Assembly: GCA_040376635.1 (NCBI GenBank)
Contig: JBEIQF010000001.1
Span: 1 to 55,529 of the forward strand
Origin: Halobacteriovoraceae bacterium
GTDB taxonomy: Bacteria; Bdellovibrionota; Bacteriovoracia; Bacteriovoracales; Bacteriovoracaceae
Direction of reading: 5' to 3'
DNA length: 55,529 bases
Shown: piece after piece, positions 48,920-55,529 of the stretch
How the letters are laid out: every line of letters starts with the position of its first letter
How positions within the stretch are numbered: the first letter of the stretch is position 1
Made by a program: the position numbers and the translations under genes
Notes under the pieces: model-generated
Seen by the model: the letters and a program-made list of their open reading frames with translations, nothing else
Databases searched by the model: none
What the model was told of the DNA's origin: nothing

Positions 48920-49333
48920 ATGGATACGCAAACTACCCCTAATTATGACAATGTGATTTTTTTTGATGGTTACTGTGGGCTCTGTAATGGATTCGTCGAC
49001 TTTGTGATGTCTATCGACAAAGAAGAGAAGTTTAAATTCTCTCCCCTACAAAGCGAATTTGCACAGAGAAATCTCCCACCAGAGATGACTGCAAATCTTG
49101 ATTCAGTCGTTTTTCTGAAGCAAGGAAAGACATATAGAAAATCAAAAGCTGTGATTCGTATTCTGGAAGACATGGGTGGAATCTGGAAATTTGCGACGAT
49201 CGGAAAAGTCATGCCTGAAAAGTTTCTCAATAGCGCGTATGACTTGGTAGCAAAAAATCGATATAAGCTATTTGGCAAAAAAGAAACTTGTCGACTCCCT
49301 ACGCCGGCTGAGCGCGCACGATTCATTAGCTGA
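48920..49333 (+). CDS. DCC1-like thiol-disulfide oxidoreductase (DUF393)
   Basis: IFFDGYCGLCNG.V.F, F.F.PLQS, Y.LVAKNRYKLFGK.ETC.LP. Confidence 0.92.
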   Translation: MDTQTTPNYDNVIFFDGYCGLCNGFVDFVMSIDKEEKFKFSPLQSEFAQRNLPPEMTANLDSVVFLKQGKTYRKSKAVIRILEDMGGIWKFATIGKVMPEKFLNSAYDLVAKNRYKLFGKKETCRLPTPAERARFIS

Positions 49334-49473: not shown

Positions 49474-50820
49474 ATGAAGAAATTTATTGTAGTCGTTGCT
49501 TGGGCAATAATGCTCGCTACGAGTGCTGAAGCATTTGATGTAAAACTACTGGCCAACAACAAAGAGGCCTTCTCCAGGGAGCTTACAAAAGAGCAAACTT
49601 CCCAGGCTGTTCAATGGTCTTCAAAGCACCACTTGAAATCTGATCTGAAAGTTCGTGCACTTGCCGCACTTGCAAACACATTTAACGTGATGGAGAAGAT
49701 CGACACGACATGTGAAGTTGGTCTAGTGAGACAACTTCAAGCTGACGCTAAAGCACATCAGGTCATTTCTGGTACTGAAGAAACTAGCGTTCTTCTTAGC
49801 TACCTTCGTCAACAGGACCTGATCGACGACGTACTCTATAAACTTCTTAGTGACTCTGCAGGTGTAGAATCAGACTTCATCAAAAATATTGATGAACGTC
49901 CAGCTCGTCCATTCAACGTTTATACAAGACAAAATGCTGATATCGATGTTGAGAAAATGTACGCACCGTTCAAGCAATGGCCTGACGATGTGAAGAAATG
50001 TACGCTCAACACTTACTTCGATCTCGTTAACACACTTACATTCAAGAATGCTAAAGACCGTGATAGCCAGATGTCTAAGCTGAATTACATTGCATATGTT
50101 AACGGCACTATTGATCTTGAGAAATACAACAAGCTCATGGCCCTTCAGGAAAGAGGCGTTTATGACTGGCCTATCTATTTCAGAAGATATGCTGACATCA
50201 TCAATAACGCTAAAGATAAACTAACAAAGACTCCTGAAGCAAAAGCTACTCACAACTTCACTGTTGAGTACGTTTCTAAAAGAGACAAGCTTACTCAGCG
50301 TGGAAATCTCTACCGCACATATAACAGTACTCAGGTGATGATGCTTGCTCAGATCATCGAGAAGACTGCTAAACGTATGGACGCTCGTAACGTTTCACTT
50401 AACTGGCAATATACAGATGATCCGAATGGCGAAAGAGAAATTTATGTTCTTTCTCCAATGGAGCAGTACCGTGCAGCTATCAAAATGCTGAGAAAAGATA
50501 TGGCCGAAGTGATGAGATCAGACGCATTCCGCGGAACAGGTCTTGAATACGATCACCTTATCGCAGCTGCATACGAAGCTGGTTTCATCAAGTCTCATGA
50601 ATTAGACCAGGTTCTGAAGTTTGAAGATTTCTGGAATCCAAAAACTCCAAAGTGGAAAGCTTATGCAAACTTTGCATTCTCTCTGGCAGGAACGGCAACG
50701 TTCTACCTTCCACCTCCATGGAATATCATCGGCGCTATCGGTCTCGTACTTACACAGTCAAGACTTGTTAACGGTGATGTGGCCCCTGATGCAGATGAAA
50801 ACTGGAACGTGATTATTTAA
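49474..50820 (+). CDS. Hypothetical secreted protein with C-terminal hydrophobic segment
   Basis: Signal peptide, GAGG SD; helical; FAFSLAGTATFYLPPPWNIIGAIGLVL near the C-terminus. Confidence 0.75.
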   Translation: MKKFIVVVAWAIMLATSAEAFDVKLLANNKEAFSRELTKEQTSQAVQWSSKHHLKSDLKVRALAALANTFNVMEKIDTTCEVGLVRQLQADAKAHQVISGTEETSVLLSYLRQQDLIDDVLYKLLSDSAGVESDFIKNIDERPARPFNVYTRQNADIDVEKMYAPFKQWPDDVKKCTLNTYFDLVNTLTFKNAKDRDSQMSKLNYIAYVNGTIDLEKYNKLMALQERGVYDWPIYFRRYADIINNAKDKLTKTPEAKATHNFTVEYVSKRDKLTQRGNLYRTYNSTQVMMLAQIIEKTAKRMDARNVSLNWQYTDDPNGEREIYVLSPMEQYRAAIKMLRKDMAEVMRSDAFRGTGLEYDHLIAAAYEAGFIKSHELDQVLKFEDFWNPKTPKWKAYANFAFSLAGTATFYLPPPWNIIGAIGLVLTQSRLVNGDVAPDADENWNVII

Positions 50821-50838
50821 TTAAGGGAGATATATAAA

Positions 50839-52068
50839 ATGAAAAGCAAAAAGCTGCTGGCACTTGTTGCCTTGATGTCCTTCTCTGCTCTTGCAGACGT
50901 AGGTCCATCATTCAAAGTCCTCATGAGACAAGAAGGATCAAACAGAGTTTATTACACTCAAGCCGAAATGCCGGATCTTGAGAGCAACAACTCTTTTGAC
51001 GGAAAGTATTTCAAGGTAGTGAAAGGCAAAGATAAAGAAGCCATTTCTTTTGATGAAAAAGATCCTGAAATTCTTTTGAAAGCTGCTAACACTTACTACC
51101 ATCTCAGCAAAGCACGTGAGTTTTGGGTAAAAGAGATGGAGTCTGAAACGGCTGCGGCTCTTCCTAAAATGATCGTTCGAGTAGAGATCACAAACCAATT
51201 TGATGATCTTGGACACTTTGCTCACCAGAACAAAGCGCCACAATACAATAACGCTCTTTCTGTTCCAGAAGGTGAAACACCATCATGGGTACCTGCTGAC
51301 AAGCAAGACAAATGGGGCAAAGAGATCTGGTTCCGTCCAATGAAGAAGATTCTTACTTCTGAACTTGGACCAATGGGACCGAATCCACTTACTCAAGGTC
51401 TGATGGCACTTGAACGTCCACTGCTTAGTTACACTGTTAACCAGTTTAACCAGAGACTCATGGAACAGTTCTTCTATCCTGCTTATGTATCAAGACCTCT
51501 TCACGAAGATGTTATCCGTTACGTTGGTACGATGGCCCTTATGCGCGTGATGATCTACGGATCAAAACATGCTGACAGACTATTCATCGACAAATACTAC
51601 TATCTTGATACAGCAATGCTTCCAGAGATTGCTTATCACGAATACGCACACGTAGTTCTTGCTGATAAACTTGCAATGTCACACTCAACTCCAATGAACG
51701 AAGGTATGGCGGATTACTTCGCAGCTGTTCAATCTGGTAAGAGAAAAGTTTACGGCAAAGTACCAGGTCGCAGTAATGCTGCTCCAAAAGACACTCAAGA
51801 AAAGAGAACTTATACTCACTGGGATGAATCTAACCGAAATGCCACAGCGGACTTCACTCTTTCAGTTCTTTGGGACGTAAGAGAAACGCTTGGCGAAGAA
51901 GTTGGTGATAAAGTTGTTTATCAGGCCAGACACTATCTCAAAACTGAATCTTCAACGATCAGTGATGGATTGTTAAGAGCGATCCTTCGAGCATGTGAGG
52001 ACAAATGTCCTGAACCTCGAAATGATAAGTACAAACTGTATCAGACGTTTGGAAGAAAAGGTTTCTAA
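50839..52068 (+). CDS. Secreted gluzincin metalloprotease (M4/M36-like)
   Basis: Signal peptide; ANTYYH, YNNA, HEYAH...MNEGMADYFA, LWDVRE.LG. Confidence 0.8.
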   Translation: MKSKKLLALVALMSFSALADVGPSFKVLMRQEGSNRVYYTQAEMPDLESNNSFDGKYFKVVKGKDKEAISFDEKDPEILLKAANTYYHLSKAREFWVKEMESETAAALPKMIVRVEITNQFDDLGHFAHQNKAPQYNNALSVPEGETPSWVPADKQDKWGKEIWFRPMKKILTSELGPMGPNPLTQGLMALERPLLSYTVNQFNQRLMEQFFYPAYVSRPLHEDVIRYVGTMALMRVMIYGSKHADRLFIDKYYYLDTAMLPEIAYHEYAHVVLADKLAMSHSTPMNEGMADYFAAVQSGKRKVYGKVPGRSNAAPKDTQEKRTYTHWDESNRNATADFTLSVLWDVRETLGEEVGDKVVYQARHYLKTESSTISDGLLRAILRACEDKCPEPRNDKYKLYQTFGRKGF

Positions 52069-53156: not shown

Positions 53157-53684
53157 TTACCTCTCAACCTGTTGAGTGATCAGAACTTCGTTTTTTTCCT
53201 GTCTTGGAGTCTTGTAGATAGACGGAATTGAATGATCGGAGAAAGCGTGGATCTCAGACCACTTTCTCTTAATTTGAACATTCACAATTGGATTCCCCTC
53301 AATCTGATACTTACGAGTGAAATATCTAATTGCAGGTTTAAGAAGAACTCTTTGATTAGGATTACGAAGGTTGTCCTGTGAATATTTCATCCAGCGGGCC
53401 TTTCTGAATGGCGCCAACAATCCCTCAGGATTTTTCTCTACATCGTATTCTTTCACATCACCGTTTTGGTAAGTGATCGCCACATAACTTTTTGAATCGA
53501 ACTTGATCGGATTTGGTGCGAACATCGACCAGCTCGGCCAGATACCTACTGCGAAAGCAACTTTCATCGCTTTATCTTTCAATCTGAAATTGAGAGTATT
53601 CGTTTCAGGTACTCCTGCAAAATAGATCACAGCCAGATAGGACACAATTAATGTGTTCAGAATGTACTTAGTTAACCGTCTCAT
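53157..53684 (-). CDS. SdpA/DUF5819-like membrane-anchored partner protein, copy 2
   Basis: N-terminal TM, WPSWSMFAPNP, R..RW.KY; overlaps the upstream HTTM gene. Confidence 0.72.
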   Translation of the reverse strand: MRRLTKYILNTLIVSYLAVIYFAGVPETNTLNFRLKDKAMKVAFAVGIWPSWSMFAPNPIKFDSKSYVAITYQNGDVKEYDVEKNPEGLLAPFRKARWMKYSQDNLRNPNQRVLLKPAIRYFTRKYQIEGNPIVNVQIKRKWSEIHAFSDHSIPSIYKTPRQEKNEVLITQQVER

Positions 53685-54639
53685 GTTGACCTCTTACTGT
53701 TCTGATTAGTTTTTCTTTTATTTCATTCGCTAAATTCGTGTCATTGATTCCAGAAATGAATGCCTCTTTCATCTTCACAACGAATGCCTTCAATTCTTCA
53801 GGAGTGAAGAAGTTCATCAGAAGAACAATCATCGACAATTCAAAGAATGGAATACTCATCGTGTATTCAATCCCCAGATGGAAGAGGACACCTACGATAA
53901 TGACTGGTTTACGAAGCTTTTTAACCCAGATGAGAGACCCCAGAGAGAATTCAACTAACAAAGCTCCCCAAGTAGCGAGCTTGAGGAACAGCGGCGAATC
54001 TAACAAAAATGGCACAGGGAAATTTGTTAATCCTTCGATTCTCGTCGCATAGTAAACAGCTGTACCATCTAACCAAGTATCCCCTTTCAGTTTGTGCCAC
54101 GTCGTCCAAAGATACACGACAGAGATCTGAATCTGAATGAGGCGTAGTGCCCAAACAGGCCACGTTCTCTTTTGACGAAAACTTTCAAAGTATCTTCCCA
54201 GTAAAGAATCCACTGAAAATGAATGTCCACATGGAGAGCAAATAAGAAGCAATGTAATGGCCCTCATTAACATTTCAGACGAGCTTAGAAGCCATATGTT
54301 GCGCTGGTGAAGACTCGCCATACAAATGAATGCAATCATCAATGAACCGCGTGTAAATAATCCCAACATCGCAGTGATGAGTGAGATTCCGTAAACAATC
54401 ATCACTCCATAAGCAACTTCATAAGTTGGTTTAAAAAGTTTAAACAAACTTATATGCAAAAATGGGAATTCATTTTCAGCAGTTGTATGGGAAATAATGG
54501 CATGAGGACCATAGAAGTCAGTGACATTACCGAGATCCATAAGGAAATAACAGAAAAGTAATCCGGTCCAGATGATTCTGAAAAGTGCGATCCCTTCTGT
54601 TGGTCTCTCTTCAAAGAAGAATTTATTAAGCGCGTTCAT
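53668..54639 (-). CDS. HTTM domain membrane protein (vitamin K-dependent gamma-carboxylase/SdpB-like), copy 1
   Basis: IALFRI..G, GLFTR, RN, FSVD, W.LRLIQIQ.SVVY....KL...W.DGTA, FHLGI.....IPFF..M; TAATG overlap with upstream gene. Confidence 0.88.
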   Translation of the reverse strand: MNALNKFFFEERPTEGIALFRIIWTGLLFCYFLMDLGNVTDFYGPHAIISHTTAENEFPFLHISLFKLFKPTYEVAYGVMIVYGISLITAMLGLFTRGSLMIAFICMASLHQRNIWLLSSSEMLMRAITLLLICSPCGHSFSVDSLLGRYFESFRQKRTWPVWALRLIQIQISVVYLWTTWHKLKGDTWLDGTAVYYATRIEGLTNFPVPFLLDSPLFLKLATWGALLVEFSLGSLIWVKKLRKPVIIVGVLFHLGIEYTMSIPFFELSMIVLLMNFFTPEELKAFVVKMKEAFISGINDTNLANEIKEKLIRTVRGQHETVN

Positions 54640-55169
54640 TACAGCACCTCATGGGTGTAGAATTTATGTTTTGAATGGGACTTTGCTTTAGATAAATGAG
54701 GAATGAATTTTTTATCCATGTCTGGAATAATGTTCCAATGACGATAAAGATGAACTTTCATAGGGATTTTGTGAAAGTTATTTTCTTTTAACTTTCTCAA
54801 TGCAAACTTCGAAGTATCAGGCCACAAATGACTGTTTACATCTTTACGAATAGCTTCTGTGATCACGCGATATCTTTCACCATGGGTATATTTATCGGCT
54901 AGGTTCATTTTAGATGCATCTGGAAAATAATAAACATCAGTTGAACCATCATCAAACTCCACTTCTGCAGTTAAATGAACATTTGTCCTGGCGGGATTGG
55001 GTGAAAACATCTTCCAGCTTTGATAAAGACTAAAAAATGAAAGATAAGAATCAATAGGCCTGTAGAGACTTGCCACAATTTCATTTTGCATTGGCATGTG
55101 AATGCGAATCATGGTGAGAAAATTGAAAACAATGAATCCCGAAATCAAAAACTTTTTTGTTTTGCTCAT
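54639..55169 (-). CDS. SdpA/DUF5819-like membrane-anchored partner protein, copy 1
   Basis: N-terminal TM, YQSWKMFSPNP, ERYR. Confidence 0.72.
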   Translation of the reverse strand: MSKTKKFLISGFIVFNFLTMIRIHMPMQNEIVASLYRPIDSYLSFFSLYQSWKMFSPNPARTNVHLTAEVEFDDGSTDVYYFPDASKMNLADKYTHGERYRVITEAIRKDVNSHLWPDTSKFALRKLKENNFHKIPMKVHLYRHWNIIPDMDKKFIPHLSKAKSHSKHKFYTHEVL

Positions 55170-55204: not shown

Positions 55205-55232
55205 AAAAAAGACACCCCTGTTAAGGGGTGTC
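55205..55232 (-). terminator. Intrinsic terminator/attenuator between the NGS-repeat gene and the HTTM operon
   Basis: Minus strand GACACCCCT-TAAC-AGGGGTGTC-TTTTTT. Confidence 0.8.
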
Positions 55233-55338: not shown

Positions 55339-55529
55339 CTACCAAAGATTCATGCCGCTACGGCCATTTCGTCCATTTGAACCATTGCTTCCATTCGAAC
55401 CGTTAGAACCATTCGATCCGTTAGAACCATTTGATCCGTTAGAACCATTCGATCCGTTAGAACCATTTGATCCATTAGAACCATTTGAACCATTTGAACC
55501 ATTTGAACCATTTGAACCATTTGAACCAT
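55339..55529 (-). CDS. 3' end of an Asn-Gly-Ser repeat (collagen-like Gly-X-Y) protein; 5' part outside the window
   Basis: Manual translation: (NGS)x17-NGR-NGR-SGMNLW-TAG; variation among the NGS units is synonymous (AAT/AAC, GGT/GGA, TCA/TCT/TCG/AGC). Confidence 0.8.
   Translation of the reverse strand, partial: GSNGSNGSNGSNGSNGSNGSNGSNGSNGSNGSNGSNGSNGSNGSNGSNGSNGRNGRSGMNLW
55378..55529 (-). repeat. 9-bp tandem repeat (AATGGTTCA consensus), at least 17 units, with 18-bp higher-order units
   Basis: Directly visible: tgaaccatt repeats and cgatccgttagaaccatt variants. Confidence 0.95.

Follow-up and report, generated by a model that had tools for sequence, protein, structure and literature searches.

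The window analysed here, 55,529 nucleotides long, is one entire contig of a 515-contig genome assembly (92.8% complete) and ends within a tandem array of nine-nucleotide units encoding the C-terminal tail of a truncated gene. The tail is adjoined on the same strand by a terminator-like hairpin and a doubled pair of DUF5819-type and HTTM membrane proteins, with a thiol-disulfide oxidoreductase gene beyond them (Table 1).

Table 1. Features of the repeat gene and its neighbours in the window
Feature	Coordinates	Strand	Basis
Truncated gene 3' end: (GSN)17-GRN-GRS-GMN-LW-stop	55339..55529	-	ORF reading; syntenic same-genus orthologs, one ending (GSN)n-GRNG
Intrinsic-terminator-like hairpin, 9 pairs, T6 tail, between repeat gene and DUF5819 gene	55211..55232	-	fold; 20/27 loci similar
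DUF5819 protein A, 176 aa, SdpA-like small subunit	54639..55169	-	PF19136 27.6 bits, cut-off 27.1
HTTM protein A, 323 aa, SdpB-like, homolog of vitamin-K-dependent carboxylase membrane part	53668..54639	-	PF05090 E 9e-17
Second DUF5819-like protein B, 175 aa	53157..53684	-	PF19136 16.9 bits, below cut-off
Second HTTM protein B, 310 aa	52222..53154	-	PF05090 E 1e-22
DCC1-like thiol-disulfide oxidoreductase	48920..49333	+	PF04134 E 3e-24

The array reading frame, running on the minus strand from 55527 to 55339, contains 20 uninterrupted Gly-X-Y triplets and matches the collagen family PF01391 at 41.8 bits (cut-off 27.2). The initial annotation had counted at least 17 NGS units; these comprise 16 complete N-G-S units and a 17th in which the contig end truncates the Asn. 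Compared with the commonest 9-mer, the 17 nine-mers carry 20 differences, all silent as that annotation had described, with 18 at third codon positions and two arising from one TCN-to-AGC serine switch. The array encodes a single tripeptide in the GSN frame, versus 4-7 in the other five frames. The silent changes bear out the claim of selection on the peptide, and the array is a selected, Pro-free Gly-X-Y protein tail with a collagen match. The GSN array is real and coding. Two further frames over it, one on the plus strand beginning MPLRPF and one on the minus strand beginning MVQMVQ, were rejected as shadows because the changes are silent in the GSN frame only. The five identical units reported at the window edge are present; because they sit at the assembly break, where copies could be collapsed or genuine, they are no guide to the ongoing slippage which that annotation suggested. 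The array is the sole tandem array in the window and the only place in the whole assembly with runs of three or more NGS.

The hairpin that separates the repeat gene from DUF5819 gene A has counterparts after the repeat gene at 20 of 27 loci, versus 1 of 270 shuffles. HTTM proteins A and B score 58 and 66 bits against TIGR04033, both below its cut-off of 178, and protein A also aligns to human GGCX (phmmer, E 2e-4). DUF5819-like protein B aligns to protein A at a W-x-M-F-x-P-x-P motif. With GGCX numbering set by a 31-residue offset in the alignment table, HTTM A residues K183, W189, E230, and F266 align with GGCX K218, W223, D263, and F299, and the first three are kept in at least 93% of 36 aligned HTTM sequences. 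The His at the GGCX H160 position is absent from all 36; the GGCX Asn159/His160 site is occupied instead by an L-(S/N)-S-x-(E/D) motif, where the pairwise alignment contains a 2-residue gap. Carboxylation itself is doubtful, because the His that GGCX needs for this reaction is missing (roles of the GGCX catalytic-site residues: PMC12647623). In a 2026 preprint, DUF5819 and HTTM proteins have been modelled together as a split vitamin-K-dependent carboxylase like MloH, with DUF5819 as the clamp part and no substrate named in the accessible part of that report (10.64898/2026.08.19.745780). The genome encodes menB, indicating menaquinone supply, and VKOR, both above cut-off, and the futalosine pathway family was not found in it. 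The DCC1-like protein is a possible redox accessory, and DCC genes also adjoin DUF5819/HTTM genes in Bacillus, Streptomyces, and Ralstonia loci. A search for related loci using the lone DUF5819 protein as the query found none.

Several other genes recur around these loci. The two proteins encoded at window positions 49474-52068 (448 and 409 aa) look secreted, match no Pfam family significantly, and flank the cassette in many relatives; by eye, similar-looking secreted pairs adjoin family paralogs on contigs C40 and C87. A fused HTTM-DUF5819 protein of ~600 aa with an MloH-like layout, missed by Pfam, precedes trpS near the cassette in relatives (L014:6907-8718) and also lies beside a family paralog in two genomes (G010 and G183). 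Contigs C179/C7 and C267 of the window's own genome belong to the same set of loci, and this genome also has a 435-aa HTTM frame (E 4e-59).

The 5' half of the repeat gene is absent from its own assembly. Most contig overlaps in this assembly measure 141 nt, less than the length of the GSN array; the break falls inside the array, and no contig start in the assembly overlaps the window end. Comparison with eight public sequencing runs, one of which may be the source sample, revealed contigs extending 24-96 nt beyond position 55372 and ending within the array in seven of the eight, with no difference from the window listed at 55339-55372; none of the contigs from these runs bridged the array. 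No RNA data set was listed as containing the sequence, a result with no bearing on expression. Searching the assembly for the missing half recovered seven paralogs of the N-terminal domain, none of them the syntenic partner, and the trpS neighbour seen in relatives continues here into unrelated genes. Five other genomes have the same kind of contig-end tail ahead of DUF5819.

Same-genus genomes carry full-length orthologs at the matching position, ahead of the same small gene, and the layout of these proteins is constant. A signal-peptide-like start (judged by eye) is followed by a ~120-aa domain, then by a G-x-x-F-x-G motif and a hydrophobic helix with basic residues on either side; a Ser/Thr linker leads into the Gly-X-Y tail. 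One ortholog ends in (GSN)n-GRNG, and another carries about 55 GSN units. By gene position and synteny, the window tail is very likely the truncated end of a member of this family of probably exported proteins. The family comprises 512 clusters at 50% identity and occurs in each of the other 50 genus genomes. Its ~120-aa domain is predicted to form five helices (AlphaFold mean pLDDT 81). No consistent match to 137 members of the domain was found in NCBIfam or Pfam, nor any match to the domain in the PDB. Foldseek returned nothing at E<=0.001, and the best VIA fold match (Z 8.2, to ABC-transporter helices) was judged generic, neither of which shows a new fold; the best ESM Atlas score of 0.80 serves as a lead only. 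A full-text literature search found no paper on the family or its linkage to DUF5819/HTTM, and the main text of the Peredibacter genome paper (PMC13147790) contains no mention of collagen, HTTM, RiPP, or bacteriocin.

Two features bear on the location of the tails. Among the 149 of 164 fetched family proteins long enough to score, 89 have an even number of Cys residues after the helix, 20 an odd number, and 40 none; this parity, which would fit disulfides, suggests that the tails are exported. Against export, basic residues come after the hydrophobic helix, and by the positive-inside rule such residues would put the tail in the cytoplasm. In the AlphaFold monomer of a GSN-tailed ortholog, the tail is unfolded (pLDDT <50), so that the model shows no triple helix and no polyglycine-II bundle.

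Tails and copies elsewhere in the family vary. Paralogs bear conventional GKD/GEK/GPQ collagen, and one on contig C40 of the same genome (G000:C40:1-1218, L022) carries 62 charged Gly-X-Y triplets (GDK/GEK) and is likewise cut by a contig end. A recurring two-Cys C-terminal motif, NNG-x-GNGDQDAPG in form, caps several tails (L031, L038, L039, L041, L044) and is possibly a small disulfide or Ca-binding module. In three genomes, the repeat gene and DUF5819 are separated by an inserted, divergent family domain (e.g. L014:11414-12142, L017:12584-13306).

The split DUF5819 operon is present in 28 of 51 genus genomes, and a family gene or Gly/Asn-rich end lies beside it in 27 of these, the other (G176) keeping a remnant. 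The 27 include three with one intervening gene, one frameshifted gene, and six contig-end tails, the window's own among them. A close family member (E<1e-60) occurs in 24 genomes, 22 of which have the operon. The cassette, one copy of which is carried by the complete genome of Peredibacter sp. HCB2-198 (L137), is placed among at least three neighbour sets and in several gene orders, holding together throughout. These counts are not independent, because kin share synteny. The linkage is not obligate. Among the other genomes of the genus, the family is found in 50 of 50 and the operon in only 27, and most paralogs with the same motif and helix have no HTTM gene seen alongside. Stand-alone copies nest among linked ones at two places in the tree; the split operon was not found in G019, which has a GNN tail, and has been lost at the site in G011.

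Linked tails have a distinct composition. Across 25 operon-linked orthologs (1,072 triplets), GNN accounts for 37%, GSN for 12%, and GST for 12% of triplets; Pro is absent from all 1,072, and the median charged fraction is 8%. Twenty of these orthologs have at least 14 triplets, and the median tail length is 201 aa. A composition table was compiled without five linked genes, of which four have other periods or only short runs and one an N gap, and without two unlinked ones, G019 (whose GNN tail lies at a contig end) and G011 (whose tail is GGTT). In this table, Asn/Ser/Thr make up at least 71% of X/Y, charged residues at most 19%, and Pro is absent, in 20 of 21 linked Gly-X-Y tails; all five stand-alone Gly-X-Y tails tabulated have at most 25% Asn/Ser/Thr, four being 60-71% charged and one 40% Pro.

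Beyond the genus but within the same family, a repeat neighbour was found at only three of seven HTTM loci and none at the other four; across the phylum, 9 of 20 HTTM loci read have no repeat-rich neighbour. In genus g116 (family f9, same phylum), split HTTM occurs in 25 of 26 genomes, and 23 of these 25 encode, about 6 kb or less from HTTM, an unrelated secreted protein of ~1000 aa. Of the remaining two, one (G377) carries next to HTTM a 365-aa GNN gene that consists of repeat only, and the other has neither. Nine of these secreted-protein loci were read, eight containing Gly-X-Y runs, of which six are uncharged and two charged (52-60%). This second carrier shares the repeat, not the helical domain, with the window family. 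Fused HTTM-DUF5819 genes adjoin four more carriers. At 11 second-carrier loci with Gly/Asn/Ser repeats, several of them at contig ends, no HTTM lies in the fetched flank. HTTM was not found in 7 of 10 genomes of these carriers (four by two queries, three by one), including the complete genome G411, whose carrier has GNS triplets.

Further arrangements were seen in family f9 and outside the phylum. A ~590-aa secreted domain, with no Pfam match beyond collagen, occurs in 56 of 121 f9 genomes with interchangeable N-terminal repeats (GNN, GNSN, GSSS, Pro-Thr; L067:9989-13228 and relatives). In G377, the signal and GNN part form a separate gene (L075:8448-9545) beside the HTTM operon, and the globular domain is located about 1.3 Mb away (L107). 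At three of four plasmid loci read outside the phylum, a gene for a ~110-aa signal-peptide protein precedes DUF5819 and HTTM; in Bacillus and Streptomyces plasmids, these proteins (L087:2848-3183, L088:520-852, L089:2980-3312), which lie ahead of DUF5819, HTTM, and DCC genes, have no Pfam match and are candidate bacteriocin-like precursors. In a Ralstonia locus, an ORF with Asp/Ala repeats lies two genes ahead of the small partner gene.

We tentatively propose, at a little short of even confidence, that the Pro-free, uncharged Gly-X-Y tail of the exported protein is the substrate of the adjacent DUF5819-HTTM membrane enzyme. The protein would leave the cytoplasm by Sec, and DUF5819 and HTTM would form one periplasm-facing enzyme, using menaquinol and O2, via the conserved Lys, to generate a strong base. 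This base would take a proton beside a carbonyl in the repeat, most likely at the Asn C-beta, and the resulting carbanion would be carboxylated or otherwise captured. Capture would make the neutral, unfolded strand acidic and cation-binding, and so able to form a collagen-like or surface fibre, by analogy with the charged residues in the stand-alone collagen tails of the family. The terminator after the repeat gene would keep the substrate in excess over the enzyme. The initial annotation had suggested that an uncharged, Pro-free repeat may need modification to fold or to bind metal or surfaces; the gene context lends real support to the idea that such a repeat may need modification.

The main competing reading, unlikely but of appreciable weight, is an ordinary prokaryotic collagen-like or disordered surface protein whose tail is a length-variable spacer without a dedicated enzyme, the operon being inherited synteny or acting elsewhere. 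The conventional collagen of the paralogs, the existence of similar repeats without HTTM, and the low tail pLDDT all agree with it, as does the stability that bacterial collagens can derive from polar and charged residues (PMC8968730). It accounts poorly for a cassette that moves and rearranges as one unit, for the tracking of linkage by tail composition, and for the presence of these enzyme genes next to both an unrelated carrier and a repeat-only gene. Gly/Asn/Ser/Thr richness like that of the tail is found in only 9 of 3,295 long reading frames of the window's own genome. Processing of the SdpC kind is somewhat less probable still. Here, DUF5819/HTTM would release or mature a hydrophobic peptide starting after G-x-x-F-x-G, with the repeat as unmodified, variable polar cargo or spacer. 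The ortholog layout matches that described for SdpC (PMC6818787), in which a signal and a conserved N-terminal part precede a hydrophobic C-terminal domain that varies; both HTTM proteins weakly match TIGR04033, a terminator follows the precursor gene, and the ~110-aa plasmid proteins occupy the corresponding place. However, TIGR04032 matched neither the window's own genome (its control matched in B. subtilis) nor appeared in the 25 families listed for the N-terminal domain, and the family does not match the ~110-aa precursors (probability 1%). Most paralogs, moreover, share the motif and helix with no HTTM gene seen beside them, the family far outnumbers the operon in the genus, and the second carrier has the repeat in common rather than the domain.

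The remaining two readings are both very improbable. A dense N-glycosylation array or deamidation clock, as the initial annotation had it, is compatible with the frequent Asn-Gly (median 29 per linked ortholog tail) and with the 20 or more N-X-S/T sites of the window allele and three orthologs. Any Gly-X-Asn repeat yields Asn-Gly, and back-to-back sequons do not hold up as the point of the array: the 25 linked tails, dominated by GNN, have a median of three, with three or fewer in 15 and at least 20 in only three. The extended bacterial sequon requires Asp/Glu; the window tail has none and therefore no such sequon, and the ortholog tails counted have 0-1. The STT3/PglB oligosaccharyltransferase was not found in the 92.8% complete genome, its control matching in four archaea; an HMW1C search of the genome was also empty, with a control that matched nowhere. 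From the low ortholog count and the STT3 result, the sequon array is a property of the window allele, not of the family. Equally remote is an origin of the tail in another gene, such as the 3'-open collagen paralog on C40, or in a decayed remnant. C40 does run into its own contig end with Gly-X-Y, and G176 illustrates a tail persisting as a remnant, but charged residues make up 64% of the C40 repeat, the domain of this paralog forms a long branch apart from the linked group, every change in the window array is silent, and the same contig-end tail precedes DUF5819 in the five other genomes.

The locus resembles several known systems in part. SdpA and SdpB of Bacillus subtilis are needed to process SdpC, by a chemistry left unstated in the available part of the source (PMC6818787). 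SdpABC/YitPOM, in the portion described, shares with the locus a secreted precursor (signal, conserved N-terminal part, hydrophobic segment) beside SdpA-like and SdpB-like HTTM proteins, a linkage that is conserved here. Unlike SdpABC, the enzyme pair is doubled, the HTTM proteins score far under the SdpB cut-off, the precursor has a long polar tail, no immunity gene was noticed, and no SdpC (TIGR04032) homology was detected in the window's own genome, where the 5' half of the gene is unassembled, or in six full-length orthologs. The GGCX likeness lies in the HTTM domain, the equivalents of catalytic Lys218 with its Trp223/acidic 263 surroundings and of Phe299, and the presence of a menaquinone pathway and VKOR; the differences are the split into two genes, the absence of His160 and the variable Asn159, and a presumed substrate tail without Glu/Asp. 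Like the prokaryotic collagen-like Scl proteins, the family has an N-terminal globular domain followed by uninterrupted Gly-X-Y triplets, but the linked triplets lack Pro and carry little charge, X/Y positions rich in Pro, Thr, or charged pairs being confined to the stand-alone paralogs; an anchor-like helix precedes the repeat, and scores fall far below the Scl cut-offs. Neither the oligosaccharyltransferase nor the conserved extended sequons of a bacterial N-glycoprotein (PglB/STT3) were detected, the genome being 92.8% complete. On the features tested, the locus works like a secreted-precursor-plus-SdpAB system but falls outside SdpC, SdpB, and canonical GGCX.

Genes for HTTM and DUF5819 proteins are widespread, and the literature found does not define which bacterial proteins are their substrates. 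Here, such genes adjoin Asn-rich repeats of one kind in two unrelated secreted families, and the analysis also names a predator protein family of considerable size that lacks a Pfam, NCBIfam, or PDB match. The substrate question is directly testable, as the highly repetitive tail should give a large mass shift and the cassette is available in the complete Peredibacter sp. HCB2-198 genome. A bolder version, which we consider improbable as a whole, is that a split, menaquinone-dependent vitamin-K-carboxylase homolog in predatory Bdellovibrionota processively modifies Asn (or Ser/Thr) along exported Gly-X-Y repeats, and that a collagen-like, metal-binding surface fibre folds through this modification rather than through Pro or encoded charge. 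If true, the system would be a bacterial counterpart of Gla proteins, and the DUF5819/HTTM enzymes would gain a defined substrate and a new residue.
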